A DNA stretch of 64,000 nt from a virus (lineage: Duplodnaviria > Caudoviricetes), in the IMG/VR virus record IMGVR_UViG_3300047160_017115, positions 1 to 64,000 of that record. One strand, 5' to 3'. Below the pieces are notes generated by a model, which saw nothing but the letters and a program-made list of their open reading frames with translations, had not been told where the DNA came from and searched no databases. The position numbers and the translations under genes were made by a program. Numbering within the stretch: the stretch's first letter is position 1; each line of letters starts with the position of its first letter. This document shows positions 3,511-62,662 of the stretch, piece by piece.

Positions 3511-3543
3511 TCATGCCCTCCCGGGGGCTTCGTACCCGAAGAA
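3511..3543 (+). repeat. dispersed 33-bp hairpin repeat, copy 1 (solitary)
   Basis: TCATGCCCTCCCGGGGGCTTCGTACCCGAAGAA, preceded by GTT; runs into RBS AAGGAG of GTG at 3555. Confidence 0.95.
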
Positions 3544-3554
3544 GGAGTCCTACG

Positions 3555-3773
3555 GTGAGTGGTAATTACGTCCAAGCCCTGGTGACAGGCGTCGAGACCC
3601 TGTACGCACCAGCACCATTAGGCGTCTGGCTCGTAGAGCTTAGGTTTGCCGGCCGAGGTTTCTTGCGCCTGTCCCATACGGACCTCAGGGCCCCCGAGGT
3701 CGGGGAGACCTGGCTCCTGACTGAACCGCAGCTCGTTAGCCGCTACAAGAATTTCCCGAAACCGGTTTTGTGA
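3555..3773 (+). CDS. small hypothetical protein
   Basis: GTG start with AAGGAG RBS; stop overlaps start of next gene. Confidence 0.55.
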   Translation: MSGNYVQALVTGVETLYAPAPLGVWLVELRFAGRGFLRLSHTDLRAPEVGETWLLTEPQLVSRYKNFPKPVL

Positions 3774-4891
3774 GCACGAGAGACACCTTGAACACACGAG
3801 AGAAGCTACAGACGGCCCGGCGCGAGATGTCCGAGGCCCTGATCGAACGCGACGACGAGATCGACCTGCTCCTCACGGCCCTGGTCGCACAGGAGAGCCT
3901 GCTCCTGGTGGGCCCCCCGGGGACGGGCAAGTCCCTGCTGTGCAAGACGCTGGCCCAGCTCATGGACGCCAGGCCCTTCGTACGGCTGCTCACGAAGTTC
4001 ACGACGCCCGACGAGATCTTCGGCCCCATTGCCATTTCCCATCTCGTCAAGGAAGACCGTTACCGCCGGGTCACTACCGGCAAACTGCCCGAGGCCGAGG
4101 TCGCGTTCCTGGACGAGATCTGGAAGGCCAGCTCGGCGATCCTGAACACCCTGCTCACGATCCTCAACGAGCGCGAGTTCGAGAACGAGGGCGAGATCGT
4201 CAAGGTCCCGCTGCGCCTGTTCGTGGCGGCCTCCAACGAGTGGCCTCCCCCCGAGACGGGGAAGGAGCTCGGCGCCCTCATGGACCGGTTCCTGATCCGC
4301 AAGGTGGTACGGCCGGTAGCGACCATCGAGGGCCGGCGTCGCCTCCTCTGGGGGCGCGACCACACCCCTAAACTGTCGGTCAGGCTCACCCCTGAGGAGC
4401 TCGACGAGGCCTCCGCCGCGGCGGCCGCCTTGCCGTGGTCGGACGGTGCCATAACGGCCATGGAGAACGTCCTGACGACCCTCCAGGAAGAGGGCGTGCC
4501 GGTGGGCGACCGTCGGCAGTACAAGGCCGTCGGTGTCGCCCAGGCGGCCGCGTACCTCGAAGGCGCCAAACAGGTCGAGACCGACCACTTCGGCGTCCTG
4601 GCCCACGTCCTCTGGGACGACCCCGTCGAGCAGCCCTCGATCGCGGAGTCGACGATCGTCCGGGTGGCGTCCCCCGCCCCTGTGAAGATCAACAAGCTCC
4701 TGCTCGAGGCCGAGGAGATCGCCGCGAAGACGAACGGGTCCGACCTCGTCGCGGCCAACGCCGCCAAGAAGAAGCTGAACGAGATCCTCGACCTGCTCCT
4801 GGTGTACAAGGGCAACGCCAAGGCCGAGCGAGCGTGGAAGGCGGTCCAGGAGAAGAAGAGCCGCCTCCTCGAGGCCGCCTTCGAGAAATGA
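3770..4891 (+). CDS. MoxR/RavA-family AAA+ ATPase
   Basis: Walker A GPPGTGKS, FTTPDEIFGP, Walker B FLDEIWKASSAILNTLLTILNER, ASNE, ALMDRF. Confidence 0.93.
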   Translation: MSTRDTLNTREKLQTARREMSEALIERDDEIDLLLTALVAQESLLLVGPPGTGKSLLCKTLAQLMDARPFVRLLTKFTTPDEIFGPIAISHLVKEDRYRRVTTGKLPEAEVAFLDEIWKASSAILNTLLTILNEREFENEGEIVKVPLRLFVAASNEWPPPETGKELGALMDRFLIRKVVRPVATIEGRRRLLWGRDHTPKLSVRLTPEELDEASAAAAALPWSDGAITAMENVLTTLQEEGVPVGDRRQYKAVGVAQAAAYLEGAKQVETDHFGVLAHVLWDDPVEQPSIAESTIVRVASPAPVKINKLLLEAEEIAAKTNGSDLVAANAAKKKLNEILDLLLVYKGNAKAERAWKAVQEKKSRLLEAAFEK

Positions 4892-5332
4892 ATGGAGACA
4901 TCGATGAGTCTCGAAAGCCCCAAGTACGCGGCGCGCGTGATGTATCGCTTCGCGGCCGTGATCAAGCCTTACGGTCCGACGGCCGGGCACAAAGGGAGCA
5001 TCGACTGGTCACTTCCCAGGGACGCGCAGTTTTGCTTTCTGGCCCCCAACGTCGACTCGGCCTACAACAAACTGCGCCATCTGTTCAAGCCGGAGGACCC
5101 CAGGCCGCTCCACGGCTACAAGCGCCTTGAGTTGGCCTACGACCGCGTCAGTGCCGACCCGCGCGACGTCTTCCTCGTCTTCGACAGCCGGGGAAGTCGC
5201 GTGGTCGCCGCTCTCAACGAGGAGGAGGCCTTTAAGTGTGTGGGGCGGGGTTGGAGTTCCAGGATCGACAGGATCGGGCCCTACGAGCCCCCTGACGGGG
5301 TCGTCGACACGAAACCGTTTTTGATCTCCTGA
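4892..5332 (+). CDS. hypothetical protein, paralog 1 of tandem triplet A
   Basis: shares PYGP...KG, AYxKLRxLFxPED, DPRDVF and PPDGVVDTKP with 5516 and 6065 ORFs. Confidence 0.8.
   Translation: METSMSLESPKYAARVMYRFAAVIKPYGPTAGHKGSIDWSLPRDAQFCFLAPNVDSAYNKLRHLFKPEDPRPLHGYKRLELAYDRVSADPRDVFLVFDSRGSRVVAALNEEEAFKCVGRGWSSRIDRIGPYEPPDGVVDTKPFLIS
5310..5322 (-). promoter_or_regulatory. 13-bp motif RAAAACGGTTTYG
   Basis: reverse complement AAAAACGGTTTCG; function unknown. Confidence 0.6.
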
Positions 5333-5340
5333 TCGTCGTT

Positions 5341-5503
5341 TCATGCCCTCCCGGGGGCTTCGTACCCGGAGACTGATCTCTTGAACGACCTGCGGGCCCT
5401 AAACCTCAAGCCTTCCCGGGGGCTTCGTACCCGGAGACCCGGTCCCTCGTGATCGCCGGAAAGTATCCCATCACACCCTCCCGAGGGCTTCGTACCCAGA
5501 GTC
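5341..5503 (+). repeat. CRISPR-like mini-array of three 33-bp hairpin repeats (copies 2-4) with two 32-nt unique spacers
   Basis: repeats at 5341-5373, 5406-5438, 5471-5503; exact 65-nt period; third copy degenerate. Confidence 0.9.
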
Positions 5504-5515
5504 AGAAAGGTACAC

Positions 5516-5995
5516 ATGTCAGCAAGTACTGAGGTCACCACCCCGGCTGGCAAACGCCTGGCCTTCGACTACGAGGTCGGTATCGCCCCCTACGGCCCGA
5601 GGGCCAAGTACAAGGGGCGCATCAGTTACCCGTTCAATAGCCGCCCCGTTTTCAAGTTCAGGGCCGAGAACGGCTTCACGGCGTACAGCAAGCTCCGCGC
5701 ACTGTTCCGTCCGGAGGACGGTAGGGAGCTCGCTAAAGGCCACTACCTGAACATCCCCAAGTTTTACTGCAAAAAGGTAGAGGTTGACCGCCGCGACATC
5801 TTCGTCGTCGGGGTGTGGCACAGGCTCATCGTGGCCGCGCTCAACGTGGAGGACGCGGTGCAGGCTGCCCAGCGTCACATAAAGGCCTACGACCTCGCGC
5901 CCCTCGAGTCGCCTGCCCAGACCGTCGTCGTGGGCAACTATCGCCCACCGGACGGCGTCATCGGCGACAAGGCAGTGCTCCTCCAGTGGCCGTAA
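5516..5995 (+). CDS. hypothetical protein, paralog 2 of triplet A
   Basis: YEVGIAPYGP..KYKG, AYSKLRALFRPED, RRDIFVV, PPDGVIGDK; RBS AGAAAGG. Confidence 0.8.
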   Translation: MSASTEVTTPAGKRLAFDYEVGIAPYGPRAKYKGRISYPFNSRPVFKFRAENGFTAYSKLRALFRPEDGRELAKGHYLNIPKFYCKKVEVDRRDIFVVGVWHRLIVAALNVEDAVQAAQRHIKAYDLAPLESPAQTVVVGNYRPPDGVIGDKAVLLQWP

Positions 5996-6064: not shown

Positions 6065-6568
6065 GTGGGTTATTTCTACCCACCCGAGATGCGCCTACTG
6101 ACCGAAGATCAAATGCGCGGCATCGGGGCCGACACTCGCAGGTGCTACGAGTACGAGGTCGGCATCGTCGCGCACAAACCGGACGCCATGTTCAAGGGCG
6201 CCATCAGGCGGTACAGGCTCGGGCTAGAGCATTTCAAGTTCAGGGCCCCTAACTACATCACGGCCTACAGTACCCTTCGAAGGCTCTACCTACCCGACGA
6301 CCCCAGGCCGTTACGGGGCGGTAAGGACCTGCCGTACTACGCCGACGAGGTCGCCGCCGACCCGCGCGACGTCTTCGTTGTCTGTAATGTCAGGACGTAC
6401 ACGGTCGCCGCCTTAACCTTGGAAGAGGCGGAAGCCGCTGCGCTCGCTCGTTATAAGTACGTGGCGATGACCGCCGATCCCTACTGGCGAGCGCATTCCC
6501 AGGTCACTCGAGTGGGGCCCTTCGAGCCCCCAGACGGCGTCGTCGACACGAAACCCCTGGTACTCTGA
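6065..6568 (+). CDS. hypothetical protein, paralog 3 of triplet A
   Basis: YEVGIV...FKG, AYSTLRRLYLPDDPRPL, DPRDVFVV, PPDGVVDTKP; RBS AGGAG. Confidence 0.8.
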   Translation: MGYFYPPEMRLLTEDQMRGIGADTRRCYEYEVGIVAHKPDAMFKGAIRRYRLGLEHFKFRAPNYITAYSTLRRLYLPDDPRPLRGGKDLPYYADEVAADPRDVFVVCNVRTYTVAALTLEEAEAAALARYKYVAMTADPYWRAHSQVTRVGPFEPPDGVVDTKPLVL

Positions 6569-6575: not shown

Positions 6576-6809
6576 ATGAGACAACTGCGATACCTGTTCC
6601 GCCCGAGGTTTGCCTTGACGCCTCTAGTCGTTACCAAGGACCGGTGTCAATTTCCCGAGACCGGCAGCTCCACGATCTACAAGAACGTCTACGTCTTCGG
6701 CCTCCGGGTGTATACGAGCCGCGACGCGTACAGAGACCACTGTATACCTCGTACCCATGGGGAGACCGTCTCCTGGCTCGACGACGCTGAGGAGTCCGCC
6801 GGGGATTAG
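6576..6809 (+). CDS. small hypothetical protein
   Basis: 77-aa ORF converging on the integrase with 4-nt overlap. Confidence 0.5.
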   Translation: MRQLRYLFRPRFALTPLVVTKDRCQFPETGSSTIYKNVYVFGLRVYTSRDAYRDHCIPRTHGETVSWLDDAEESAGD

Positions 6810-8008
6810 CCGGTACCGAAGACCCTGTGGAGCTCGCCCCGGGCCTGGCCGGGGATCAGGTGGCGGTACCGGCGGACCATCTCTTCCGTCTGATGGCCCA
6901 TCCACTCGTTGATCAGTCGCTGGTCGACCCCGGCCGCGGCGCAGTTTGACGCGAACGAGTGGCGCAGGACGTGCCACCCCGCCATCACCCTCCACCGCGA
7001 CCCCGCGACGGCCCGGCCGAAGTGGTGGTTGCTCCCGTCCACCGTGACAGGGTCGAGCGTCTTGTCACAGAACAGGTACGGGCCGCCCGGGTGCCGGCCT
7101 AGCCAGTCGTCCAGCACCCCGGCCAGGAACGGAGACACGGGGACCACCCGCGTGGTCCTCTTCGCCTTGTTCTTCTTCAGCTCCCGGATGAGAAACGTCC
7201 CCGTCGCGTGCTCGTAATCCGTCTTGTGTGCGCGGAGCATCTCGCTCCGGCGCATCCCCGTGTGCGCCGCCAGGCAGAACATGGGGTAGACCCAGCCCTT
7301 CCTGTCGTAGGTCGCGACGTGCCCCAGGAGCTCCGCGACCTCCGGCAGGGTCAGGAACAGACAGGCCCAGAGCTCGGCCGCCTTCTTCGAAGAGAGGCCC
7401 GCCGTCTTCTTGACGAGCGCGTCGTAGGTCGCGAAGGGCGTCTTCTCGGTGCCTTTCGGATAAACCAAGCCACGCGACGGGAACTCACCGCTGAGCCCCC
7501 CGTCCCCCACAGCCCAGGTCCACGCGGCCCCGAAGGTGGTGATCTCCTTCTTGGTCGTGACCGGCGACACCTTCCGCCCGTAGCGTCCCGTCTGGGCGGA
7601 GCGTCGCGTGACGTGACGCTGGAGATCGGCCCGCGAGAGCGACGCGACCGCGAAGGACGCCCCCAGCGTTGCCGTCAGGTGCCTCTCGTGCGTCGCGATG
7701 GTGTCGAGGGAGTTGGCCTCCAGCGACGCCTTCAGCGAGTCACGGTACTGCTGGAACAACTGCGAGAGAGTGAGAGGGGCGACTGTGGCCAGGCCGGCAG
7801 CCCCTCCCGAGAGCAGGAACAACGGCAGGTCGACCCCCTCCGGGGCCACGAGCCGACCGGTCTCCAGGTCGTGGAGGTTGGCCTCGACGCGCGAGCGGAG
7901 GGCCTCCGCCTCCCGTTGCGTGCACTTACCGAGGGTGCGCTGGTACTTGCGGCCGGCGAAATAGAAGACGATCCGGTAGGTGTTCCCCCGTCTAGCGACT
8001 GACGCCAT
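6806..8008 (-). CDS. tyrosine recombinase / phage integrase
   Basis: catalytic motifs HTGMRRSE, HVLRHSF, GHQT...YRH; N-terminal arm-binding-like region; start placed at ATG 8008 (ORF open to 8020). Confidence 0.95.
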   Translation of the reverse strand: MASVARRGNTYRIVFYFAGRKYQRTLGKCTQREAEALRSRVEANLHDLETGRLVAPEGVDLPLFLLSGGAAGLATVAPLTLSQLFQQYRDSLKASLEANSLDTIATHERHLTATLGASFAVASLSRADLQRHVTRRSAQTGRYGRKVSPVTTKKEITTFGAAWTWAVGDGGLSGEFPSRGLVYPKGTEKTPFATYDALVKKTAGLSSKKAAELWACLFLTLPEVAELLGHVATYDRKGWVYPMFCLAAHTGMRRSEMLRAHKTDYEHATGTFLIRELKKNKAKRTTRVVPVSPFLAGVLDDWLGRHPGGPYLFCDKTLDPVTVDGSNHHFGRAVAGSRWRVMAGWHVLRHSFASNCAAAGVDQRLINEWMGHQTEEMVRRYRHLIPGQARGELHRVFGTG

Positions 8009-8079
8009 GACGACCTCCAACGCGACCCAACACCACCCAACAAATATCCGTTTTGTATCCAGTCGCCGCCCCTTCGAAC

Positions 8080-8118
8080 AAAAAAAGCGGTCACGGCTTT
8101 CGACGTAACCGCTTTCCC
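8080..8118 (-). terminator. Rho-independent terminator downstream of the tRNA fragment
   Basis: minus strand AAAGCGGTTACG...CGTGACCGCTTTTTTT. Confidence 0.7.
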
Positions 8119-8124
8119 TGTAAG

Positions 8125-8184
8125 TGCCGGAGACAGGACTTGAACCTGCACGGGCATGGTTAGCCCACTAGCCCCTCAAGCTAG
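8125..8184 (-). tRNA. 3' 60-nt fragment of tRNA-Leu(GAG), att core, not a complete tRNA
   Basis: minus strand CTAGC-TTGAGGG-GCTAG anticodon arm, long variable arm, GCAGG-TTCAAGT-CCTGT T-arm, CTCCGGCA acceptor 3' strand; no D-arm or 5' acceptor strand upstream. Confidence 0.88.
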
Positions 8185-8498
8185 ACGAGGGGGTGTTGGG
8201 CCGTATTGCCCTGCGTCGGTTCGCGTGGCGGAAAGAGCGGCGCGGTTTCGACTAGCGGCGATTGCCGTGTTGGGTCGTGTTGTACCGTGTTGGGCCGCGT
8301 GGGTCAACACACGTATCCAGTTTGTATCCACCCCGCAGGTCGACGGACGACGGCGTGGGCTGGCGGCGCTCGTGAACGGCGGGTTATACCGCCGCCCCGG
8401 TCTCGAACTCTAACGGAGGGTCGCGACCTGCCCGCCATGATCCAGGAGACCATCGAGGCCGAGGCAACGATCCGCAACCACTTACCGGGAGGAGATCC

Positions 8499-11651: not shown

Positions 11652-13115
11652 GTGGAAGTCTTCACCTCGCGCTCGACTTCTGAAGGGTCTCTCGACAAGA
11701 AGCCCGCGCCGGCGGCGATGATCCGGTCGCTGCACGCCCTGCTCTACATGACTGACCACAGGCTGGCGAACCTGAAGATCACGAGGGAGTGCGCCCTGCG
11801 TCTCCTGATGAACCAGAAGACCGACGAGGCCGGGCTCACGGAGTTCGAGACCCGCGCGATCGAGGCGTGCGACAAGACCATGAGGGGCGCCAACTTCAGG
11901 AACCTGCAGGCGGCGATGGAGGCCGTGGGCTGGGCAGACAAGGAGGCGGTGTTCCAGGCCGTTATCGACAAGTTCCTCCCCGCCGACGCCGGCCCCCTCT
12001 ACGCCTCCGCCCCCACGGACGACGAGCGAGAAGTGCTCGGGGACCAGGCGACAGCTTACGCCGAGCGACGCGCGTCCTGCGCCGCCAAGGCACGGATCGC
12101 GACGCTGTCCTGTCTCGACGAGGACGGCGTATCTCCGCGACTGGCGCGCTTCATCGCCCTCTCGCTGGTGACCGGGGTGCCGAGCCTGACCCCGGCGTGG
12201 TGGAGCCTCGAGGAGAGGACGTACTTCCGCGACAGGGCCTCCCTCCTCAGGGGTACGGAGACCCTCAACGCCCACGTCGCGGCGCGCCTCTCTGACATCG
12301 CGCTCAAGATCGTCGACACGTTCATCCCCAGGCCCCCTGAGGGCGACGGTTACGAGGCGCCTATGTACCTCGACGACGACCGCGACGAACCTCGCGCCGC
12401 CGTGCCGACGGAGTACGAGAAGTCGACCTTCAAGGGCGACGCCGAGTACGCCGCGCGGAAGAGACACGAAGTGGAGCTCGCGGCCCACGCCCTGCGCTCC
12501 CTGTACTCCGAGGCCGCCTCCGACCGCGTGGTAAACTACCTCGTGAGGAAGGCTTTCGAGTCCTTCATCGACGAGAAGGTCCAGCCCCCCACGGGGTTGA
12601 CGCGCGCCGAGCAGAGGCTGATCGACAGTTACGACGACCTGGACGAGGACGTCAGCGCGATCCTGGCCGCGATCCCCCCTGATAACATCACGAAACAGGT
12701 GTTCATCGCCCACGCCATCGAGACGGGACTGCCCCCGCTACAGAGCGGGAACGAGTTCGACCCGACGCCGACGGCGGCCGAGTGCCTCAGTTGGGGTGCG
12801 CAGGCCGTGCGCTACGGGCTGCTGCGAGCCTGGGCCATGACTGACATCCGCCGGATACAGGCCACGGGCCAGCCCTGGGCCACTATGCGAGCTTTCAAGC
12901 TCTGTCTGATGTCAAATCTACAGACCGAGACCCACCTGGAACCGCCGGCCGACTGGCCCCTCGAGGAGCGCGATTACGCCTCGACGTGGCTCGACGAGAT
13001 CCGCTACGCGAAGACCAGACGGAAGGTAGGCTGGGAGGAGTCTCTCGAGACCAAAATGCTCCTGAACATCTTCGAGGAAGCGTTCAACCAACCGGAGGAG
13101 GTCCTTGCCAGTTAA
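11652..13115 (+). CDS. hypothetical protein (487 aa)
   Basis: long ORF with typical codon bias and upstream GGAG; no motif recognised. Confidence 0.75.
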   Translation: MEVFTSRSTSEGSLDKKPAPAAMIRSLHALLYMTDHRLANLKITRECALRLLMNQKTDEAGLTEFETRAIEACDKTMRGANFRNLQAAMEAVGWADKEAVFQAVIDKFLPADAGPLYASAPTDDEREVLGDQATAYAERRASCAAKARIATLSCLDEDGVSPRLARFIALSLVTGVPSLTPAWWSLEERTYFRDRASLLRGTETLNAHVAARLSDIALKIVDTFIPRPPEGDGYEAPMYLDDDRDEPRAAVPTEYEKSTFKGDAEYAARKRHEVELAAHALRSLYSEAASDRVVNYLVRKAFESFIDEKVQPPTGLTRAEQRLIDSYDDLDEDVSAILAAIPPDNITKQVFIAHAIETGLPPLQSGNEFDPTPTAAECLSWGAQAVRYGLLRAWAMTDIRRIQATGQPWATMRAFKLCLMSNLQTETHLEPPADWPLEERDYASTWLDEIRYAKTRRKVGWEESLETKMLLNIFEEAFNQPEEVLAS

Positions 13116-16250: not shown

Positions 16251-17426
16251 CTAGGCCAGGCCCCCGTAGGAGGCCGCCAGGGCGTTGAGCTCGGCGTCGG
16301 TGAGGCCGATGCGCACGTCCGAGGACGTCTTACGCAGGGTCGGGTGCAGGCCCAGGTCTCCCATCATGGCGTCGAAGAGCTCGGCGTCAGGTCGGGGGAG
16401 CGTGTGCACCAGCTGTGCCATCTTCTCGGGGTCGACTTCCAGACCCCGACGCACACTGTCGGCGAACTCGTCGCCGAACAGGCTGCGGACGTCGTCGAGG
16501 GCGACCTTGGCGAGCGTCGTCTTGTCGTAACACGACCCGCTGGTGAGCTCGCACTTCGTTGCCAGCTCGCCGGCGGCCTTGGTGAAAGTCGCCTCGAAGA
16601 GCACGTCCTCCGGCGCCGGGATGGCCTGCGAGTAGCGGCCCACGAGGCCCTGGTCGCGGTCGATACCGTCGACGAGCTCCGCGAGCTTTACGAGGTTGTC
16701 GGGGTGACAGAAGCGGCGCTTCTGGTTGTCGATGGCGTTGGCGAGCTCGAAGAGTTTGGTGGTCATGGCCGCGCTCTTCACGAGCCGGCCCCGGTCCCGC
16801 AACATCGCCGTGACCCTGTCAGGGTCGCACACCCCCCGGCCCGCCTGGCGCTCGAGGAACTCGTCGTACCCCGCGCCGAGGGCGGCGCCGTACGCCGCGG
16901 CCTTCTCGAGAATGCGGTCGGCGATCTCGTGGCGCTGGCTGAACGGAAGCGACGTGCGCACCGAGTACAACCACTCGGCGGCCTCCTTGACCCCGGCGGC
17001 GTCGCGCATCAGGCCGTACCGGCCGGAAGGGAACACGGCGGCGAACTCCGAGTCGGGTGGGCCTGCCGCCTCTGCCTCGGCGAGCTCAGCGGCCCGCTTC
17101 TCGACGGCCTCGTACTCCGGCACGATGCCCCAGTACTCAGCGAAGCCCCGCAACCTTCCTTCGATCCGCGCGCGGTCGCTAGGCTTGAACGCGGCCCGCT
17201 TGTCGAGGTAATACGCTGCAGACAACCAGGTAGCGGCCTTGCTGTCGCAGTTGTAGAGGCCGTGAACCTGGTCGGCGCAGGCACCGGCCTCCAGTCGCTC
17301 GGGGCCACCCACGGCGTCGAAGTCGGCCTGCTTGACGAAGTCAGGAAACTCGTACAGGTGCGCGAGGCGCACCAGTTCCGACCGGTTGCGGTCGGAGCGG
17401 ACATCCCCCACGGACGGAATCGACAT
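16251..17426 (-). CDS. hypothetical protein (possible virion/late protein)
   Basis: strong codon bias on minus strand; start placed at MSIPSV (ORF open to 17507); one of few antisense genes. Confidence 0.7.
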   Translation of the reverse strand: MSIPSVGDVRSDRNRSELVRLAHLYEFPDFVKQADFDAVGGPERLEAGACADQVHGLYNCDSKAATWLSAAYYLDKRAAFKPSDRARIEGRLRGFAEYWGIVPEYEAVEKRAAELAEAEAAGPPDSEFAAVFPSGRYGLMRDAAGVKEAAEWLYSVRTSLPFSQRHEIADRILEKAAAYGAALGAGYDEFLERQAGRGVCDPDRVTAMLRDRGRLVKSAAMTTKLFELANAIDNQKRRFCHPDNLVKLAELVDGIDRDQGLVGRYSQAIPAPEDVLFEATFTKAAGELATKCELTSGSCYDKTTLAKVALDDVRSLFGDEFADSVRRGLEVDPEKMAQLVHTLPRPDAELFDAMMGDLGLHPTLRKTSSDVRIGLTDAELNALAASYGGLA

Positions 17427-19011
17427 GCCTGATTCTCCTGAGAACGCGGTCACCGCGATTGCCACCTGGCCCGCAGTCGCCCAGGCCCTTGACGTCCCCC
17501 TGCGCACCCAGGCCTATCCCCAGACCACCCTCTGCCCGGTGTGCCGGACGGGTACGCTCACGGTCCTCTACGATAAACTACGCGAGGGCCACTGGCACCA
17601 CTGTGAGGGCTGTGGCCGTAACGGCGACATGGTCTCCCTGGCCGCGGCGGCCTGGGGCATCAGCCGCGCGGCGGCTCTGCTCCGACTGGGGGCGTCGGAA
17701 CCGCGTGAGGTCTCGTACCTTACCTACGGCGACGACCCGTGGGCCCAGTGCGCCAAGTTGTGGGCCGAGGTCGGTGCCAACGCCCTCCAGGCGCCCGGAC
17801 CGTCCGCGACGCAGCTCCTGACGCGGTTCAAGCTCGACCACTCTCTCTCTCCCGAGCGCGCCGCCGCGGGGCCGGCCCGTCTCTTCGGCCACTGCCACCA
17901 CACGACGGCCGCGGCGTGTTTCAACCCCCATACGGTAGACGGGGCACCGAGTCGGGGGGGTAGTTTCCGCCTGTTCAAGGGCGGGAACTGGGGCCAGGTC
18001 GTGGCCGTCCCCTATTTCGATCTCCCGGGCCGCGTCCGGAGCTTCCTGTTCATCGGTCGCGACGGCGCGCCCGGGGACTACGTCTACCGCCACCACACTG
18101 ACGGCGCGAACGAGTTCGGGCTGGCCGGCCTCGATCTCCTCTACAGGGAGGGCGAGCGCGTCGGCCGGACCGTCGTGGCCATGTCCGACCCCCTGCTCAT
18201 GCTCCAGCTCCAGGTCCGGCACCTTAACAGTTCCACCGTCCCGCTGCCCCTGGTGGCCTGGCACGACGGTATTGAGGGCGTGACCGTCAACGCCTGGGAA
18301 TGCCTGGCCGACCGCACCATCGTGTTCTGGTCACTGGGGATGTCGGCGTCGACCCTGCGGCAGGCGATGCTCGTGGACGGCCACCTCTGCGTCCTCGGTC
18401 CCCAGGACACCGACAACCAGTCCGTTGAACACTACCTCCGGCACAAGTCGCCCCAGGACCAGCTCAAGGCCGTCATGAAGCGCGCCAGGCCGTGGCGCGA
18501 GACCTTGAGGGCGTGGGCCGATAGGGTCGGGGAGGAGGCCTTTGAGAGCCTGCTCGCCGAGCTCGACGACACCGACGTGAACACCGTCCTGCGGTACTGC
18601 GACCCGCGCCTGGCCGACGTCGTCGGCCGCGTGCGGTCGCGCCCCCTGATCCGCTCCGTGCGACTCGGGACCGTGACCGTCACGGAGCACCCGGACGGGT
18701 CGTGGTACGCCGTGAAGTACGCCGCCAAGCGCCCGCCGGAGCCGTGCGGGGTGATCGTGGACGCGGCGCTCAGGATCGAGCAGATCGTTCTCTCGGGCGC
18801 GACGTCGCGCTACAAGGGGTACGTTCGTTACCGCGGCGAGGAAGTCCCCTTCGACGCCCTCAAGTCCTTGGTCGACAAGGACCCGCTCAAGTTCGTGGAC
18901 AGGCTCCTGATCGAGAAGCGCAAGGGCGTTCTCGTCTTCTCGCGCGACTGGTCGGGCCGTCTCATCGCTCTGGCCCAGCTCTTCCACACCCCGCTCATCG
19001 TCAAAGGCTGA
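17425..19011 (+). CDS. primase-like protein with N-terminal CHC2-type zinc finger, Toprim acids not recognised
   Basis: CPVC...HWHHCEGCGRNGDMVSLAAAAWGIS resembles DnaG zinc-binding domain; VPYFDLPGRVRSFLF resembles RNAP subdomain. Confidence 0.55.
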   Translation: MPDSPENAVTAIATWPAVAQALDVPLRTQAYPQTTLCPVCRTGTLTVLYDKLREGHWHHCEGCGRNGDMVSLAAAAWGISRAAALLRLGASEPREVSYLTYGDDPWAQCAKLWAEVGANALQAPGPSATQLLTRFKLDHSLSPERAAAGPARLFGHCHHTTAAACFNPHTVDGAPSRGGSFRLFKGGNWGQVVAVPYFDLPGRVRSFLFIGRDGAPGDYVYRHHTDGANEFGLAGLDLLYREGERVGRTVVAMSDPLLMLQLQVRHLNSSTVPLPLVAWHDGIEGVTVNAWECLADRTIVFWSLGMSASTLRQAMLVDGHLCVLGPQDTDNQSVEHYLRHKSPQDQLKAVMKRARPWRETLRAWADRVGEEAFESLLAELDDTDVNTVLRYCDPRLADVVGRVRSRPLIRSVRLGTVTVTEHPDGSWYAVKYAAKRPPEPCGVIVDAALRIEQIVLSGATSRYKGYVRYRGEEVPFDALKSLVDKDPLKFVDRLLIEKRKGVLVFSRDWSGRLIALAQLFHTPLIVKG

Positions 19012-19824: not shown

Positions 19825-20700
19825 ATGATCGTGGAGTACACGTTCTCGTTCGAAGACGGTAGGCCTCCGGTACGCGCGGAGGGCAACAATGAGGCCGATG
19901 CTTTGCATAAGCTTCACGCCCAGGGTGTAAGCCTCGTAAGTCTCCAGGCGTCAGGCCTGAACTTGCGGCATCTCTCACTGGACAAGGCAGACCTCTCGGA
20001 GGCCAGGCTATGCTCTGCGGACCTCACTGGCGCATTTCTCCAGGGTTGTTCGCTCCGCAACGCCAGACTTTCCCAGGCCAACTTGACGACGGCCTTCATG
20101 CGGAACTGCGACCTACACGGCGCCCGAGCGCTTCGTACAAACTTCAGGGGGGTGAATCTGAGCGTCGACGCCTCCTGCGGTTTCAACAACCGCTGATCTA
20201 TCGACGCCCATCAGGCCGTGTTCGCAGGCGCTCACCTGGAGAACATTAACTTCAGCAACTCGTGCCTCCGCAAGGCCGATTTCAGCAACGCGCACCTCGA
20301 CCACGTTCACTTCAATTCCGCCGACCTCTCCGGCGCCACCGGGCTCCTCAATTCCGCCGACTGGCTCCATGCCAACTTCGAGGCGTGCCCTGACGGGCTG
20401 ATCGTCTACAAGCGCATTGGCACGGCCACGATGTACTTGCCTCCCCCGCGCTGGAGGATCGAGTCTGGGAGCGTGCTCGAGGAGGCCTGCAACACGAATC
20501 GCAGCATCGCCTGCGGCTGTGGCGTCAACTTCGGAACCAAGGAGTGGTGTGACGCTAATTACATAACGGCGTCACTCTGGAAGTGCCTGCTCAAGTGGAT
20601 CGACCTCGCCGACGTGGTCGTCCCCTACATGACCGACGGCAAGGCCCGGTGCTCCCGCCTCACCCTCCTGGAGGCCGTCAATGAGCGTGTCGAGGCGTAA
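19825..20700 (+). pseudogene. pentapeptide-repeat protein interrupted by an in-frame TGA (ORFs 19825-20196 and 20218-20700 are in the same frame)
   Basis: ADLSEARLCSADLTGAFLQG and AHLENINFSNSCLRKADFSNAHLD repeats either side of TGA 20194-20196; C-terminal LIVYKRIG...CGCGVNF...GKARC domain. Confidence 0.65.
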
Positions 20701-21175
20701 GCCGGCCCCGGCGTGCCTGTACTGCGGCAGTAAGCTCAAGAAGTACGCGAACTACACCTACCCGGACACGGTCTCTACCGCGAACGGGAATCGGCTGGAA
20801 ACGTCCGACGAGATTATCGCCAGACTCGGGCTCAAACCGTCGCAGATCATAACCAAGGAAAATGGTTACGTCGTGTGGCGCGGGGACGACTACGGCATGT
20901 ACGGCGACGACTGCTTCTGTGGGCGCTGGTGCCAGTCCCGCTACGCCCAAAGAGAGGCGCCGCCCGCCGGTTCCGTGCGGTACCGCGTCGAGGTCGTCCT
21001 CAAGCCCGGGGCCGGGAACACGAGGCCCGTGGAGGTCATGTTCGTCGAGGCCGTCAGGGTCCTCCAGTACGCCCCCGTCACCACCCCAGGCAGGCCTTAC
21101 ATCGTGTCCGACGACAAGGACTGTCAGATCCGTGTGCAGGTCGACGACCGTCGCCCCGAGAAGTACCTCCCCTGA
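20681..21175 (+). CDS. zinc-finger protein, paralog 1 of triplet C
   Basis: PACLYCG..L ... YG...FCGRWC. Confidence 0.75.
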   Translation: MSVSRRKPAPACLYCGSKLKKYANYTYPDTVSTANGNRLETSDEIIARLGLKPSQIITKENGYVVWRGDDYGMYGDDCFCGRWCQSRYAQREAPPAGSVRYRVEVVLKPGAGNTRPVEVMFVEAVRVLQYAPVTTPGRPYIVSDDKDCQIRVQVDDRRPEKYLP

Positions 21176-21189
21176 AACGACCACAACCC

Positions 21190-21672
21190 ATGAATAAGCA
21201 ACCCAGACCGAAGTGTGCCCAGTGCGGTGCGCGCCTCGCCAAGTTCTACGAGACCGAGTTGGCCCAGGCCGGCGAGACGAGGGACGACTTCATCAAACGG
21301 GTGGCGGGCGGGGACGTTACTAGACTGAGTGCTTTCAAGCCCGTGAACCACTGGAGTTATAGCGCCTACGCCCGCGTATGGCACGGCAAGTACGGCAGTC
21401 GGTGTCGGGAGAGCGCGTTCTGCTCGCGGCGTTGTGAGCTGACGTGGTTCAGGCATTTCAGGCCCAAGCCCGACGCCGACACCGTCCACCTGGTCCTCAC
21501 GGTCGACGCCGGCGGTCGCGGTCCTACCATGCCTCAGGACGTTGCCGACACCCTGGTCAAGCTGGCCAAGGACCTACAGAAGAGCGCGGACCTCTCCGAG
21601 CGTCGCGATATCTTCGGCGGTAACGGGAAGGTCAAAGGGACGCTTCAGTTCCACGCCCACAGCGAGAGCTGA
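21190..21672 (+). CDS. zinc-finger protein, paralog 2 of triplet C
   Basis: PKCAQCG..L ... YG...FCSRRC; ATG 21190. Confidence 0.75.
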   Translation: MNKQPRPKCAQCGARLAKFYETELAQAGETRDDFIKRVAGGDVTRLSAFKPVNHWSYSAYARVWHGKYGSRCRESAFCSRRCELTWFRHFRPKPDADTVHLVLTVDAGGRGPTMPQDVADTLVKLAKDLQKSADLSERRDIFGGNGKVKGTLQFHAHSES

Positions 21673-21707
21673 GGCCCGTAGAGCCAACACACAAGGACTT
21701 ACCACCC

Positions 21708-22190
21708 ATGCCCAAGGCCGCGAGGCCGACCTGCGTCATGTGCGGGCGCGCGTTGCCCAAGTACACCAGATGCCGCTACAGCGAACCTGGTGAGAGCAAA
21801 CAGGAGTACGCGAATCGCCACTGCGGCGGCGACCTGTCGAAGATCACGACTTACAAGGACTGGCACGACGGTAGTAGTTGTCGCGGCTACATTTGGGACG
21901 GCGAGTACGGCGCTCACTCCACCGGCCCCGGCCCGTTCTGTTCCACGGCGTGCCAGTTAGCATGGGCCAACAAGTCCGCCCCCCGTAACGGCGACCGTAC
22001 CGTCGTGATCCGGCTCGAGATCACCGAAAACGGTTTTGGGCTGGACCTCAAGAAAGATGTATCCGAGTACCTTGCGAACTTCTCCAAGACCCTCAAGAAC
22101 TGCCAAGACATGCCGTCAGACCTAGTGCTCTTCGACCGTTCTGGGGTCGTGTGTGGCACGTTCTACTACTACGACCGACGGCTCGGATAG
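21708..22190 (+). CDS. zinc-finger protein, paralog 3 of triplet C
   Basis: PTCVMCG..L ... YG...FCSTAC; AAGGA RBS. Confidence 0.75.
   Translation: MPKAARPTCVMCGRALPKYTRCRYSEPGESKQEYANRHCGGDLSKITTYKDWHDGSSCRGYIWDGEYGAHSTGPGPFCSTACQLAWANKSAPRNGDRTVVIRLEITENGFGLDLKKDVSEYLANFSKTLKNCQDMPSDLVLFDRSGVVCGTFYYYDRRLG
22026..22038 (+). promoter_or_regulatory. 13-bp motif RAAAACGGTTTYG
   Basis: GAAAACGGTTTTG inside CDS. Confidence 0.6.
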
Positions 22191-22205
22191 CGCTTCCACC
22201 ACTCA

Positions 22206-22293
22206 TCGTGCCGCCCCGGAGGCTTCGTATCCGGAGACCGTGATCAGGATCGTCAAACCTTCATGCCGCCCCGGAGGCTTCGTATCCGGAGAC
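22206..22293 (+). repeat. pair of 33-bp hairpin repeats (copies 5-6) with 22-nt spacer
   Basis: TCRTGCCGCCCCGGAGGCTTCGTATCCGGAGAC at 22206-22238 and 22261-22293; compensatory G-C to A-T stem pair. Confidence 0.92.
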
Positions 22294-22313
22294 GGGTCGC
22301 CCTCGGTGTAGGG

Positions 22314-24248: not shown

Positions 24249-24362
24249 GAAGCACGTCCTTGTGTGCCGCGGGCCGCCGACCGTGGCGGCTTGTCTAGTC
24301 TGACGTGGCCGGCCTACGCTGAACGGCGTGACCGACCGAAACACATAGGAAGTGAGCAGAAC

Positions 24363-24593
24363 ATGGCGACGGTCCAGGCCGTGACGTCACGAAGCGCGTG
24401 GCAGTTCCTCCGCCGTACGGGGTACCTGCCGACGGATTACTTTCCACGCCCTCGTCTCGACGCCGAAGCGCTACTGGTCCGCCGGGTGCCGTTACACCCC
24501 CCACTCCCGTTGCCCGAGATCACACGGGGCGCGGACGGGGAACCGGCACCCGACGCGGCTGGGATCACTCCCTGGCCGCTCGCGGGAGGTTGA
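24363..24593 (+). CDS. small hypothetical protein
   Basis: ATG 24363, 76 aa. Confidence 0.4.
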   Translation: MATVQAVTSRSAWQFLRRTGYLPTDYFPRPRLDAEALLVRRVPLHPPLPLPEITRGADGEPAPDAAGITPWPLAGG

Positions 24594-32433: not shown

Positions 32434-32466
32434 TCATGCCGTCCCGGGGGCTTCATACCCGGAGAC
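32434..32466 (+). repeat. dispersed 33-bp hairpin repeat, copy 7
   Basis: TCATGCCGTCCCGGGGGCTTCATACCCGGAGAC. Confidence 0.92.
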
Positions 32467-32540: not shown

Positions 32541-32573
32541 TCATGCCGCCCCGGGGGCTTCGTACCCGGAGAT
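32541..32573 (+). repeat. dispersed 33-bp hairpin repeat, copy 8
   Basis: TCATGCCGCCCCGGGGGCTTCGTACCCGGAGAT, runs into GGAG RBS of ATG 32585. Confidence 0.92.
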
Positions 32574-34389: not shown

Positions 34390-34659
34390 ATGAAACGCAG
34401 TACGTTCCTCCACGTCCTCGCCGGCGTCGTCCTCGGTACGTCCGCGGTCTTGTGGTCTGTCGTGCTGTTGGGGTACACGGACCCCACCTCGTGCCCCCTC
34501 TGCGCCCGCGCCAGGGACGCCGAGCCGTCATGCCTTCCCGGGGGCTTAGTACCCGGAGACGAGGTCAACTGTTCGCCCCCTCTATCCGGGAGAAGAACGT
34601 TGAGCACTTTCGGAGATAGCACCACGACCGCGGTGTCTACAACCCTCAGATACGATTAG
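34390..34659 (+). CDS. small membrane/secreted protein containing a repeat copy in frame
   Basis: hydrophobic N-terminus, CPLC; may be an artefact of repeat insertion. Confidence 0.4.
   Translation: MKRSTFLHVLAGVVLGTSAVLWSVVLLGYTDPTSCPLCARARDAEPSCLPGGLVPGDEVNCSPPLSGRRTLSTFGDSTTTAVSTTLRYD
34528..34560 (+). repeat. dispersed 33-bp hairpin repeat, copy 9 (solitary)
   Basis: TCATGCCTTCCCGGGGGCTTAGTACCCGGAGAC. Confidence 0.92.
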
Positions 34660-41377: not shown

Positions 41378-41415
41378 TCATGCCAAGCCTTCCCGGGGGC
41401 TTTGTACCCGGAGAC
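41378..41415 (+). repeat. dispersed hairpin repeat, copy 10 (5-nt expanded 5' end)
   Basis: TCATGCCAAGCCTTCCCGGGGGCTTTGTACCCGGAGAC. Confidence 0.9.
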
Positions 41416-43623: not shown

Positions 43624-44510
43624 TTGCCGCCAGGTCGATACCCGTGTCCCTGCAACTCGACCCTCAGGGTCTGGTCTGGTGGGGCGACGCTCGCGACGCC
43701 GCAGAATCGACCTGCATGGGCGCCGAGGAGTTCGCCGCTTCCGGACTACCCATGGAGGCCGGGGCCGTGCGTCTCTTGGGGACCGTGGCCAACGCCCCCC
43801 TGATCGAGGCCCTGGGCCGTCATCACCCGGACCTCCGCGTTTACCTCGGCTCGCCGCTCAAGGCCCCCCTGGACGGCCGCCACGACCCTGAGTGCGTACT
43901 CTCCCGACTCAGGAACGATACGGGCGGCTGGCACCGTCTGAACGAGGCGGCCTGGCAGGCGTACCGGGTCACGGCCCGGGTCGCCGCGTGCGGCGTCGAC
44001 GCCGAGGCCGTCGAGCTCTTCAAGGCCCACCCCGCTTACGCCGCCGCCTCGTTCGTGCCGGGTCACGATGTGGTGGCGGCGTGCCGGTTGGCGGCGGCGG
44101 TAGTTGACCCTCGCTGGTTCACGGACCCGCGGCGCCCGGACCGGGTGTCACGGGTCGCGACGTTCCTGGGGGTCAACCCGTCGAACGCCCAGGCGCGCTA
44201 CGAGGGCACCGGCGGCGGCCGACATGCCGCACGCTTCTCCGATGTCCTGGGGGCGTGGTACGACCGTCCTGGCCTCCCCGTGAAACCGACGGGCCCTTCG
44301 GCCTTCCTCTGGAGGGTCCACGCGGCCGCCGGGGGCGGGCCCAAGGGCCTCCTGAAGGCCTCCCGCTGTTACCTCAGGTTCCTCGTCTCGGTCTGGTCCG
44401 ATCGGACCCATGGTCGCGGCGAGGGCCTCTTCGACGCCGACCTGTTTTTCTCCCGGGACGTCGGTGCCGCCGACGCGTATCGCCAGCACCTGTCTTCCCT
44501 GACGTCCTGA
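43620..44510 (+). CDS. Nop-domain / IS110 C-terminal-like RNA-binding protein
   Basis: HPAY...FVPG...AACRLAAAVVDPRWF...VSRVATFLGVNP and C-terminal KASRCYLRFLVSVW resemble IS110 Transposase_20/Nop pattern; N-terminal RuvC acids not clearly seen. Confidence 0.55.
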   Translation: MIAARSIPVSLQLDPQGLVWWGDARDAAESTCMGAEEFAASGLPMEAGAVRLLGTVANAPLIEALGRHHPDLRVYLGSPLKAPLDGRHDPECVLSRLRNDTGGWHRLNEAAWQAYRVTARVAACGVDAEAVELFKAHPAYAAASFVPGHDVVAACRLAAAVVDPRWFTDPRRPDRVSRVATFLGVNPSNAQARYEGTGGGRHAARFSDVLGAWYDRPGLPVKPTGPSAFLWRVHAAAGGGPKGLLKASRCYLRFLVSVWSDRTHGRGEGLFDADLFFSRDVGAADAYRQHLSSLTS

Positions 44511-61135: not shown

Positions 61136-61973
61136 CCAGCTCGGTGCGGTCCTGTCCTTCGAGTTCCATGACAAGTTCCTCGACCGCTCGGAGTTCGACC
61201 GGCTGATCGGACAGTGCCTCCGGGGCCTGCCCGGGGGCATCCTCCCGGAAGTGGTCGAGGACTCGGTCCCCGAGCTCTTCGGTGTGCGGGGGGACCACAA
61301 GAAGTTAGTGACGGCGGCGTGGCGGCTGGCCGGCAACCTCTCCAGGTTGCAGGCTGGCCTGTCCGCCCCGCCGTGGTCGGCCCAGCGTGGCACGGAGTGG
61401 GCGCCTCTGTCAGTGATCGGGGCGTCCCCGGCGCGCCGGCGCGACGCCCTGGGCTGGGAGGTCGAGTTCCGCGTCCTCGCGGGTACGGCCTGCCCCCTGA
61501 CGACGCGTCGGTGGTGGTCCCCGAAGACGTGCCGCGCCCTCTCCCGCCACTTCGGGTTCTCGCGGCCGCTGCCCCAGAACTCGAGACGGTCGCTCCTGCA
61601 CCCGTTCGTGAACGCCGACCAGTTCGTGACCCTGCGCCTGCTCGCGCTCCTGGAGCCCGAGCTGAGCGAACACGGTCCCGGTTTCCTGACGGTGGAGTTT
61701 CCGTCCGCCATACAGGCCTGGAACCGTACACAGCACCTCTACCGTGGCCGCCGCGACGCGGCGCACGCCTGCCCGTTCGGCTACGAACGGGACTGGCCGT
61801 GCCACCGCTGCCACGTCGGCTACCGGGAGTGCCGCGCCGGTACGCACCGTGAGACGTACGTCCCGAGGCCGTGCGCGGCTTGCAAGCGTGAGGACGCCCT
61901 GTTCGACCCGGCACGGCGCCGGGGCGACTGCGTCAACTGTGAGCGGACCCGTGTGTTGCACGGGCCGGTGTGA
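61044..61973 (+). CDS. hypothetical protein with C-terminal Cys-rich zinc-binding region
   Basis: CP..CHRC..C..C..H..CAAC..CVNC cluster. Confidence 0.7.
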   Translation: MTRVKKRQKDTRGAGPPKVGHNLKEVFRRRDQLGAVLSFEFHDKFLDRSEFDRLIGQCLRGLPGGILPEVVEDSVPELFGVRGDHKKLVTAAWRLAGNLSRLQAGLSAPPWSAQRGTEWAPLSVIGASPARRRDALGWEVEFRVLAGTACPLTTRRWWSPKTCRALSRHFGFSRPLPQNSRRSLLHPFVNADQFVTLRLLALLEPELSEHGPGFLTVEFPSAIQAWNRTQHLYRGRRDAAHACPFGYERDWPCHRCHVGYRECRAGTHRETYVPRPCAACKREDALFDPARRRGDCVNCERTRVLHGPV

Positions 61974-61999
61974 CGCCCCTTTGAGAGGAGACCTCCGAG

Positions 62000-62518
62000 A
62001 TGTCGAACGACGAGAAACCGAACCCCGCGACGGTTACCGTGCAGATCCCTCCCCCCGAGCAGGGGGCGTTCTACGACAAGCTCATAACCAAGGGCCGTAC
62101 GGCCGCCGACCTCCTCGACCTTCAGGTCACCATGATCGCGCCCCTGAAACCGGAGACCGGTGACGGGGAGCTCGACAAGGTCACCGGCGCGGTCGTGAAC
62201 TCGTTCGCGGAGAGCCTGAAGACCTCGGCCAGTACCTTACGTGACCTTTGCCGCCACGTCCGACACCTGCACGCCCTGCGCGTCGCCTCGGCCCGGAAGC
62301 ACAACAACGCCGTGCGTACCGCCAAGTCGTACATGAAGCAGGTCGCGTACTACAACTACGGCGTTTACATGGAGCTGATCGAGGAGCGCGACGCGACGGA
62401 GGCCGAGCTCCGGGCTCAAATCGCCGAGCTCCAGGCCCAGCTCGCGGCCCCGCCCGTGTACTCCGATCCTGAGACGCCGGCCCCTACCGACCGGCCCGTC
62501 CTGAGCACCGCGGTCTGA
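62000..62518 (+). CDS. hypothetical coiled-coil protein
   Basis: GAGGAG RBS; heptad-like C-terminus. Confidence 0.7.
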   Translation: MSNDEKPNPATVTVQIPPPEQGAFYDKLITKGRTAADLLDLQVTMIAPLKPETGDGELDKVTGAVVNSFAESLKTSASTLRDLCRHVRHLHALRVASARKHNNAVRTAKSYMKQVAYYNYGVYMELIEERDATEAELRAQIAELQAQLAAPPVYSDPETPAPTDRPVLSTAV

Positions 62519-62531
62519 GCCCGCCACCTGC

Positions 62532-62563
62532 GGCCCCGGCGGCGCGAGTCAGCCGCCGGGGCC
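62532..62563 (+). terminator. perfect 12-bp GC hairpin after stop codon
   Basis: GGCCCCGGCGGC / GCCGCCGGGGCC. Confidence 0.45.
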
Positions 62564-62581
62564 ACACTCCCGTGGTGATAG

Positions 62582-62662
62582 TCATGCCCTCCCGGGGGCT
62601 TCGTATCCGGAGACTCCGGCTGCTCTTTCTTACGCCCTCCCGGGGGCTTCGTATCCGGAGAT
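62582..62662 (+). repeat. pair of 33-bp hairpin repeats (copies 11-12) with 15-nt spacer
   Basis: 62582-62614 and 62630-62662, both ...CCCTCCCGGGGGCTTCGTATCCGGAGA; second runs into GAGG RBS of thyX. Confidence 0.92.

Follow-up and report, generated by a model that had tools for sequence, protein, structure and literature searches.

A co-oriented 33-nt hairpin repeat between the genes of an uncultured phage, tentatively read as a boundary element

The repeat family

The stretch of DNA considered here (the window) comprises bases 1-64000 of the 87,878-bp IMG/VR virus record IMGVR_UViG_3300047160_017115, for which CheckV gives a completeness of 39%, with 61% of the genome missing. Between its predicted genes the window carries repeated copies of a 33-nt hairpin element, and the identity of this element is the subject of the present analysis. 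The G+C content is 61-67% along the window. Nearly all genes are located on the + strand; the clear minus-strand genes are those of a tyrosine integrase (6806-8020) and the large terminase (22314-24344). Recognisable genes include rIIA, a MoxR-type AAA+ ATPase and ThyX, and a replication block encodes an SbcC/Rad50-like protein, an SF2 helicase, DnaB, a primase, a fusion of uracil-DNA glycosylase (UDG) with PolA, and a UvsX-like recombinase.

A search of the window with the 20-nt core CCCGGRGGCTTCGTAYCCGG, in which up to 3 mismatches were allowed, returned 12 matches, all on the + strand (12/12), against a shuffle mean of 0.06; none of the 100 shuffles reached 12. The first-pass annotation had described twelve co-oriented copies, and each of its positions indeed holds one. 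It had also proposed a genome-wide count, which comes to 15 copies in the 87,878-bp record, 15/15 of them forward, and 0 for reverse and control patterns; the three copies outside the window start at 68964, 78608 and 83469. In a profile search, the 15 copies score 32-44 bits and the next-best site 7 bits. Because of this gap the family is crisp and has no halo of decayed copies; it is real and well defined.

The conserved unit spans 33 nt (columns 12-44 of alignment A2) and reads TCAYGCC-NN-CCCGGRGGCTTCGTAYCCGG-AGAC. A 5' box of moderate conservation (TCAYGCC) is followed by two free positions, which are the only variable ones in the unit, and a contiguous block of 24 near-invariant positions (columns 21-44), CCCGGRGGCTTCGTAYCCGG-AGAC. 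The GTTTC extension that had been seen on two copies is confirmed at 3511 and 5341; it occurs with an insertion at 32434 and is missing from the other 12/15. The element is probably functional.

The copies form ten loci, namely six singles, three pairs and one triple. Tandem copies are spaced 48, 55, 65, 65 and 107 nt from start to start, and the segments between neighbours (29-88 nt) are irregular. Dispersed copies have sharp ends and share no flanking homology with one another. Every copy falls between predicted genes (15/15), in keeping with the earlier description of copies at gene-module boundaries. The copies of the window are listed in Table 1.

Table 1. Copies of the 33-nt repeat in the window and their immediate surroundings (ORF, open reading frame)
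Copy	Arrangement	Position	Strand	Upstream side	Downstream side	Sequence features
1	single	3511..3543	+	48 nt past stop of ORF 3272-3463	ends 11 nt before GTG start 3555, AAGGAG between	degenerate 3' end CCCGA-AGAA
2	first of triple (65-nt spacing)	5341..5373	+	9 nt past stop of ORF 4892-5332		GTTTC extension
3	middle of triple	5406..5438	+			5' box variant TCAAGCC
4	last of triple	5471..5503	+		ends 12 nt before ATG 5516	degenerate, two stem pairs broken
5	first of pair	22206..22238	+	16 nt past stop of ORF 21708-22190	convergent junction with minus-strand terminase gene (stop 22314)	A-T state of covarying pair
6	second at terminase junction (55-nt spacing)	22261..22293	+		no + strand gene after	A-T state
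7		32434..32466	+	8 nt past stop of ORF 31704-32426		loop G-to-A change
8	107 nt after copy 7	32541..32573	+		ends 11 nt before ATG 32585, GGAG between	
9	single	34528..34560	+	563-nt gap after ORF 33539-34372	same gap, to antirepressor-like gene 34936-35949	
10	single	41383..41415	+	14 nt past stop of accessory ORF 40659-41369	directly upstream of core replication module, whose first gene is SbcC/Rad50-like	
11	first of pair (48-nt spacing)	62582..62614	+		upstream of thyX	G-T state
12		62630..62662	+		ends 10 nt before ATG 62673 of ThyX gene, GAGG between	G-T state

The hairpin and its folding strand

The unit contains a 5-bp stem, CCGGG/CCCGG, around a 9-nt loop. One stem pair, 26/36 in A2, is GC in 10 copies, AU in 3 (22206, 22261, 68964) and GU in 2 (62582, 62630), and is unpaired in 0. 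The first-pass annotation had noticed this mostly G-C, partly A-T or G-T pair and taken it as the mark of a real hairpin; over 15 copies the observation holds, and the covariation of the pair supports the hairpin. Two of the three AU copies form the tandem pair 22206/22261; the third is a separate, diverged copy, 68964, which also converts an adjacent G-A into a G-C pair. The other stem pairs show three mismatches in total, two in copy 5471 and one in copy 3511. The covariation score of the stem was matched by only 13/500 column shuffles.

The G-U state and an invariant inner G-U are paired on the + strand only, as both become A-C mismatches on the template (minus) strand. This identifies the sense strand, as RNA or + single-stranded DNA, rather than the template, as the strand that folds.

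Placement of the copies relative to genes

The motif starts 8-16 nt past the upstream stop codon at four loci (5341, 22206, 32434 and 41383), and at four (3511, 5471, 32541 and 62630) a start codon lies 10-12 nt past its end, the interval containing a Shine-Dalgarno (SD)-like run. These four start-proximal copies deviate in the last motif bases (AGAA, AGTC, AGAT and AGAT, respectively), which read AGAC elsewhere. The pair 22206/22261 is flanked by two stop codons, one of a + strand gene and the other of the minus-strand terminase gene, and no + strand gene lies downstream. Rightward (+ strand) transcription must begin afresh in two divergent regions, 8021-8498 beside the integrase and ~24249-24814 beside the terminase start, and neither of them contains a copy. 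The presence of copies at a convergent junction together with their lack in the divergent regions is the opposite of the pattern expected for an element that is only a promoter. A pure, efficient terminator is also awkward, since in front of four downstream genes there is too little space for a separate promoter.

A scan for hairpin-plus-T terminators, which covered 20001-40000 only, found 19 candidates compared with 12.2 +/- 4.0 in shuffles and hence no clear enrichment; only four were on the gene strand, and no motif copy was picked up. A simple scan of the same 20-40 kb found no host-type sigma-70 -35/-10 boxes, and none is recognisable inside the motif either. An intrinsic (Rho-independent) terminator was rejected as the identity of the element, in view of its 5-bp stem, its 9-nt loop, its folding z scores of -0.3 to +1.5, and the AGAC and SD run that follow in place of a T-run.

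Lineage and relatives

Among GenBank phages, terminase identity reaches 28% at best, and the first 20 kb of the window have no near match there. Metagenomic terminases that are 50-66% identical number in the hundreds, on contigs of up to 236 kb; the terminase as a lone query against IMG/VR gave no match. All four complete relatives tested (4/4; 205-235 kb) contain a ~1,500-aa open frame with both catalytic domains of RNA polymerase (RNAP), beta (PF00562, E about 1e-55) and beta' (PF00623, E about 1e-20), an example being G001:C1:23426-25921; the frame is split in G002. Because complete relatives encode this fused beta-beta' polymerase, the jumbo phage studied here probably belongs to the "mReC" lineage described by Weinheimer and Aylward (PMC7481178). 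The 88 kb analysed do not contain the fused polymerase gene. To our knowledge, no promoter or terminator of the mReC lineage has been described. T7-type RNAP (PF00940) was not found in the record or in the four complete relatives, in a search that control genomes could not validate.

Two adjacent ~300-aa proteins of the window (27512-28414 and 28430-29443, +) match sigma-70 region 4 with 25.0 and 22.6 bits (Pfam cut-off 24.1) and are candidate phage sigma factors on this similarity. An HTH_17 protein is encoded at 2941-3267. We also note that relative G001 has an ORF with sigma-70 region 2, and that proteins with an RNA_pol_A_CTD domain occur in L024 and L025. The largest ORF in the 88 kb (50626-53850, +; 1,074 aa) encodes a family A DNA polymerase with N-terminal uracil-DNA glycosylase and 3'-5' exonuclease domains, a fusion kept in relatives. 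Beside the integrase gene (6806-8020, -), the minus strand of ~8110-8185 resembles the 3' portion of a tRNA, with the T-arm GGTTCAAGTCC. ARAGORN found no whole tRNA there, and the tRNA and Rfam scans of the window were both empty. The tRNA-like stretch is likely an attP, which, beside an integrase, would make the phage a temperate jumbo phage. Integron attC was rejected as a model for the 33-nt unit, which is too short and has no R''/R' core sites; the integrase probably has an ordinary tRNA-fragment attP beside it.

Gene presence was compared in 12 large relatives, whose terminases are 49-58% identical and which are thus distant, so that the comparison is coarse. Six genes were present in 0/12 (3770-4891, 5516-5995, 31704-32426, 33539-34372, 34936-35949 and 40659-41369), and these flank motif copies or sit in motif-bounded blocks. 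ThyX was present in 4/12, and gene 17332-19011, from a 13-kb motif-free block, in 11/12. The repeat copies are thus associated with lineage-specific accessory gene blocks. At copy 41383 an accessory block meets the clade-wide replication module; in two relatives the same joint is a gene overlap with no element, and the SbcC gene of the nearest relative overlaps its upstream neighbour. Upstream of ThyX in G005 and G002 there is no spacer.

Within long runs of genes on one strand, the large terminase gene is the only one on the other strand, an arrangement kept in relatives L022 and L024-L026; in several relatives the terminase carries an intein (Intein_splicing and LAGLIDADG_3). In the closest relative, L022 (terminase 64% identical), the same convergent junction contains at least 7 tandem copies of a different 15-nt hairpin, GCGRC-ACTTC-GYCGC, and the segments between these copies are themselves duplicated. 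Four further copies are located upstream of a dCTP-deaminase gene, the last one 19 nt before the start codon. The L022 hairpins (loci 852-1025 and 6188-6478; 9 exact pattern matches plus variants) are all in one orientation, include a compensatory GCGAC...GTCGC variant and a G-T variant, and are bare hairpins with no flanking boxes. The occurrence of a small, oriented family of hairpins at gene boundaries is therefore a recurring trait, but the hairpin sequence is not conserved between lineages. The terminase junctions of other relatives contain 37-nt dual-repeat arrays (L052) and 11-nt tandem repeats just past the terminase stop (L028). The 33-nt motif itself gave one chance match in IMG/VR and none in JGI metagenomes; its profile had no match across the loci of the relatives, and its two boxes were not enriched in five relatives.

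A second, AT-rich quasi-palindrome, (C/G)AAAAC-N2-3-GTTTT(G), was observed at 3759, 5312, 8698, 16207, 22027, 29575, 31682, 38488, 50487 and 57879 of the window and, beyond it, at 64117, 71355, 75947 and 78661 of the record. Many of these sites directly follow a stop codon or precede a start codon by 10-40 nt. The hits number 15 in the record (control 1), 29 in G001, there as AAAACCGGTTTTG (control 0), and 8 in G005 (control 0). In G001 a site lies 13 nt upstream of the ThyX start, where the studied phage has its hairpin pair. This palindrome, kept in a high-G+C sub-clade, is a candidate for a clade-wide regulator or promoter site.

CRISPR-type readings and the RAMP module

The first-pass annotation had compared the repeat with CRISPR repeats, type I-G(U) in particular, and proposed solitary-repeat anti-CRISPRs or mini-arrays. 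No Rfam family reaches the gathering score in the window, and for the "mini-array" at 5320-5520 no CRISPR-DR family is returned even at E<=10, in a database that holds only some repeat families. The proposed comparison with host genomes yielded no array: the core has 12 single chance-level matches, in diverse taxa, in 185,579 species genomes, a comparison limited to exact 20-mer matches and with the host unidentified. The two segments between the copies of the triple have no exact 22-mer in IMG/VR and only chance blastn matches (E >= 0.08) among GenBank phages. The supposed ...ATGAAAC handle (compare handles such as AUUGAAAC; GTTTC is the reverse complement of GAAAC) is present in only 2-3/15 copies and is not conserved. 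Moreover, six of the ten loci are single copies and the tandem spacing varies irregularly from 48 to 107 nt, unlike an array. With no repeat-family match, host array or protospacer, these CRISPR-like readings gained no support.

The same annotation had suggested the repeat as a substrate of a phage RAMP protein. The protein part of this proposal stands at the level of fold. For the 173-aa protein 44529-45050 (+), the Atlas model aligns with the PF03787 cluster (TM 0.72), and an AlphaFold (AF2) model built from 19 homologues has a pLDDT of 87.5. Csm3, Cmr, type VII Cas7 and Csf2 account for all of its 50 best PDB matches (E 5e-6 to 1e-4), and H42, H98 and a G-rich loop are invariant. The predicted structure is of the Cas7-type RAMP fold. 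The neighbouring 296-aa protein 43620-44510 (+) has a lead-level structural match to IS110 transposases (TM 0.55 over 240 residues) and is conserved at 30-42% identity in four relatives, always between the SbcC-like and RAMP genes. Comparison of both proteins with Cas, PADLOC, Pfam and NCBIfam models gave no match. No specific link to the repeat emerged; the RAMP gene is part of a fixed clade-wide module (SbcC, the ~300-aa protein, RAMP, SF2 helicase, DnaB, primase, PolA) that is retained in relatives where the 33-nt motif was not found. No CRISPR locus is in sight near the RAMP gene. Cas7-type proteins bind guide backbones and not repeat hairpins.

In TIGR systems, a unit comprises two 8-12-nt spacers with box C/D motifs, enclosed by edge repeats or stems (PMC12045711; 10.64898/2026.09.09.750476). 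A TIGR identity of the 33-nt repeat was rejected, as its stem encloses a constant 9-nt loop instead of two such spacers. TIGR-type architecture was observed in relative L052 (IMGVR_UViG_3300027838_000002), where 1241-1597 and 11737-13061 are long arrays of 37-nt period with two alternating 10-nt repeats, the reverse complements of which both end in CCA, and variable segments of ~8-9 nt. One of these arrays begins right after the terminase stop. The ORFs adjoining them have no Nop/Tas match.

Likeness to known systems

The closest likeness is to the promoter-early stem-loop (PeSL) cassettes of the T4-type phages RB49 and phi1 (Arbiol et al. 2010, PMC2839356), in which a stop codon, a G/C stem-loop within or beside promoter boxes, an SD and a start codon follow one another and which are enriched around ORFans (PMC2839356). 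Both elements are repeated, co-oriented intergenic units with the order stop, stem-loop and boxes, SD and start, often several in a row, and both are concentrated at lineage-specific ORFans rather than core modules. Transcription insulation and homology for cassette shuffling have been proposed as roles of PeSLs, and the same are proposed here. Nevertheless, PeSLs are ~100 bp long, with recognisable sigma-70 -35/-10 boxes, an AT-rich tract and stem-loops shown to terminate, whereas the present element is 33 nt long and G+C-rich, with no host-type boxes found, a weak 5-bp hairpin and an invariant loop. Its phage lineage, of high G+C and with its own multisubunit RNAP, is unrelated to the T4-type hosts of PeSLs. 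In contrast to the PeSLs, with their mini-circles and cassette swaps, the element is known from sequence alone.

The RNase III hairpins of T7 and the stable intercistronic hairpins of T4 are similar in that about ten co-oriented structured sites mark block boundaries in a one-strand genome; the upstream message keeps a 3'-terminal hairpin and the following message a short leader. The T7 sites are irregular duplexes of ~20 bp or more with varying sequence. In the present case the stem has 5 bp and loop and flanks are conserved, so that a different, sequence-specific factor would be needed. The nut sites of lambda (boxA and boxB) share with the repeat a linear box, a short variable spacer and a 5-bp hairpin with a conserved loop that is read in the nascent sense RNA; they occur, however, twice per genome and after promoters, in contrast to ten loci with tandem copies and a pair that has no downstream gene. 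Like CRISPR repeats and solitary units, the element measures 33-36 nt, contains an internal 5-bp hairpin and forms one triple at regular 65-nt spacing. Unlike them, it is sense-oriented within operons, abuts coding genes, is mostly single and has no conserved handle.

The early promoters of N4 are also small hairpins (5-7 bp stem) upstream of genes and in one orientation, and the first-pass annotation had considered a template-strand hairpin promoter of this type. N4 has three such promoters, with 3-nt loops on the template strand, served by a giant single-subunit RNAP; the loop here has 9 nt and the wobble pairs are on the non-template strand. The N4-type promoter is disfavoured by the G-T state, which becomes an A-C mismatch on the template strand at 62582 and 62630, and was rejected also on the loop length, the size of the largest ORF in the 88 kb (1,074 aa) and the lack of a PF00940 match in a search that controls could not validate.

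Weighing of the explanations

We tentatively read the repeat as a lineage-specific, PeSL-like boundary element of the sense strand between cistrons or operons, a reading that in our judgement falls a little short of an even chance. The element would be transcribed within a rightward polycistronic RNA, in which the 5-bp G+C stem and the conserved 9-nt loop would form and be read by a sequence-specific factor. The upstream message would be ended, attenuated or trimmed at the hairpin (attenuation, direction of cleavage and protection of the 3' end are not distinguished), and the next cistron, equipped with a ribosome-binding site of its own, would begin within 10-12 nt. A phage-specific restart promoter may additionally be formed by the 5' TCAYGCC box and the 3' part of the motif; if the boundary reading is granted, this is possible but more doubtful than not. 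Because copies bracket accessory gene blocks, the 33-bp copies around them may also supply homology for the gain and loss of cassettes. Among the alternatives of the first-pass annotation, its last one, cassette boundaries or recombination sites, fits best, as six genes at the copies have 0/12 occurrences in relatives versus 11/12 for the motif-free gene.

Several observations weigh against the boundary element. The hairpin is weak and thermodynamically ordinary, with no U-tract after it; RNA folding of single copies and tandem pairs, on either strand, gave z of -0.3 to +1.5 relative to dinucleotide shuffles. Two stem pairs are broken in copy 5471. The loop and flanks are as strongly conserved as the stem, which a plain terminator would not need; this equal conservation speaks for a factor that recognises specific bases and against a generic hairpin. 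Four loci leave no space for a separate promoter, and an efficient terminator there would silence the next gene. No genome in the searched collections is close enough to share the motif. The terminase junction collects unrelated repeats, so that presence there is weak evidence of function.

A pure promoter is an unlikely alternative, made plausible by the polymerase and sigma-like genes. The 33-nt block would then be the site of a phage-directed RNAP, either the fused beta-beta' enzyme of the clade with a phage sigma-like protein or the host polymerase together with a phage sigma. Initiation would take place at or immediately past ...GAGAC, and the inverted repeat would be incidental or an operator. 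The ~1,500-aa fused polymerase of all complete relatives and the two sigma-70 region 4 proteins of the window are consistent with it, as are the length of 33 nt, which fits a -35-to-+1 span, the near-invariant T34 and A35, as in a -10 element, and the four copies that have a start codon 10-12 nt past their end and an SD between. Like the T7-type promoter families, the repeats are co-oriented, sharp-edged and often tandem; no T7-like RNAP, however, was found in the record or the four complete relatives, in the search that controls could not validate. The weak 5' box (columns 12-18) and T34/A35 are suitably spaced for sigma-70, yet columns 21-44 are conserved throughout, and these 24 contiguous positions are unlike the two-box sigma pattern with its ~17 bp of non-conserved spacer. 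A promoter in duplex DNA does not explain the compensatory and wobble changes in the stem, nor the lack of copies in the divergent regions where + strand operons must start, and two copies would fire antisense into the terminase gene. Relatives with the same polymerase show no enrichment of the boxes, and the L022 counterpart lacks flanking boxes altogether. That the copies are the first start/stop signals for the deep-branching mReC phage RNAP is likewise improbable. Less likely again is a duplex-DNA site, such as an operator or a polar replication, packaging or recombination site, for a dimeric protein reading CCGGG-N9-CCCGG; on our estimate it is very unlikely. Inverted-repeat half-sites, tandem copies, the HTH_17 protein encoded nearby and the weak folding energy agree with such a site. 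A symmetric operator is not expected in one orientation in 15/15 copies; the G-T state breaks duplex symmetry and keeps single-strand pairing, the loop is asymmetric and invariant, and the conserved duplex-type site of the sub-clade is a different motif, the AT-rich palindrome CAAAAC-N2-3-GTTTTG.

The repeat could also be a selfish hairpin of the REP/MITE kind that spread in a strand-specific manner into harmless intergenic spots and has secondary effects on expression at most, which we regard as quite unlikely. It would account for a lineage-specific and very homogeneous family with sharp ends and no flanking homology between dispersed copies, for the tandem clusters, for the concentration in accessory regions, and for the build-up at the terminase junction, both here and, as a different hairpin, in the nearest relative. 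Nevertheless, REP copies occur in both orientations, often as inverted pairs, whereas all 15/15 copies share one; there are no terminal inverted repeats or target duplications, and no Y1/RAYT transposase (PF01797) was found in the 88 kb, with 61% of the genome unseen. The repeat is not a host family either, to judge from the single chance matches in species genomes, one match in IMG/VR and none in JGI metagenomes. The stem pair is preserved by compensatory change, and the repeated fit of copies to ribosome sites, at 10-12 nt, suggests that their placement is under selection. A guide-RNA or CRISPR-like role, in which solitary repeats or mini-arrays (an RNA anti-CRISPR, or crRNA- or tigRNA-like RNAs) are handled by the RAMP protein, its IS110/Tas-like neighbour or host Cas proteins, is highly improbable. 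The predicted Cas7-type fold, the lead-level IS110 match next to it (TM 0.55), the exact 65-nt period of one triple and the TIGR-type arrays of L052, of 37-nt dual-repeat form and at the same terminase junction, lend it some appeal. Against it stand the missing CRISPR-DR match at E<=10, the lack of a host array with the core and of protospacers, the unconserved handle, spacings of 48-107 nt, and six of ten loci that are single and have nothing to guide. TIGR stems enclose two 8-12-nt spacers rather than a constant 9-nt loop; the RAMP and IS110-like genes belong to the core of a clade-wide replication module, also where the motif was not found, and neither protein matches Cas, PADLOC, Pfam or NCBIfam models. 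It is equally improbable that the hairpin units are RNA partners of this orphan phage module (IS110/Tas-like protein, Cas7-like RAMP, SF2 helicase) beside the replication genes; the RAMP protein or its neighbour would then bind or cut the hairpin in the sense transcript, either as a "Cas6-style" processing of operons or as a source of guide-like RNA from the tandem clusters.

Implications

For the uncultured, RNAP-encoding jumbo phages of the mReC lineage, the 33-nt family and the AT-rich palindrome are concrete candidate transcription signals. A tempting false positive is also removed, in that a 33-36-nt hairpin repeat near a Cas7-like fold is, on present evidence, not of CRISPR type. Regulatory punctuation of the PeSL kind is known in phages; what may be new is a variant of it in a jumbo-phage lineage with its own polymerase. 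If the reading as a boundary element is true, the PeSL principle, a portable punctuation that doubles as recombination homology, would extend to an unrelated lineage of high G+C that carries its own polymerase.

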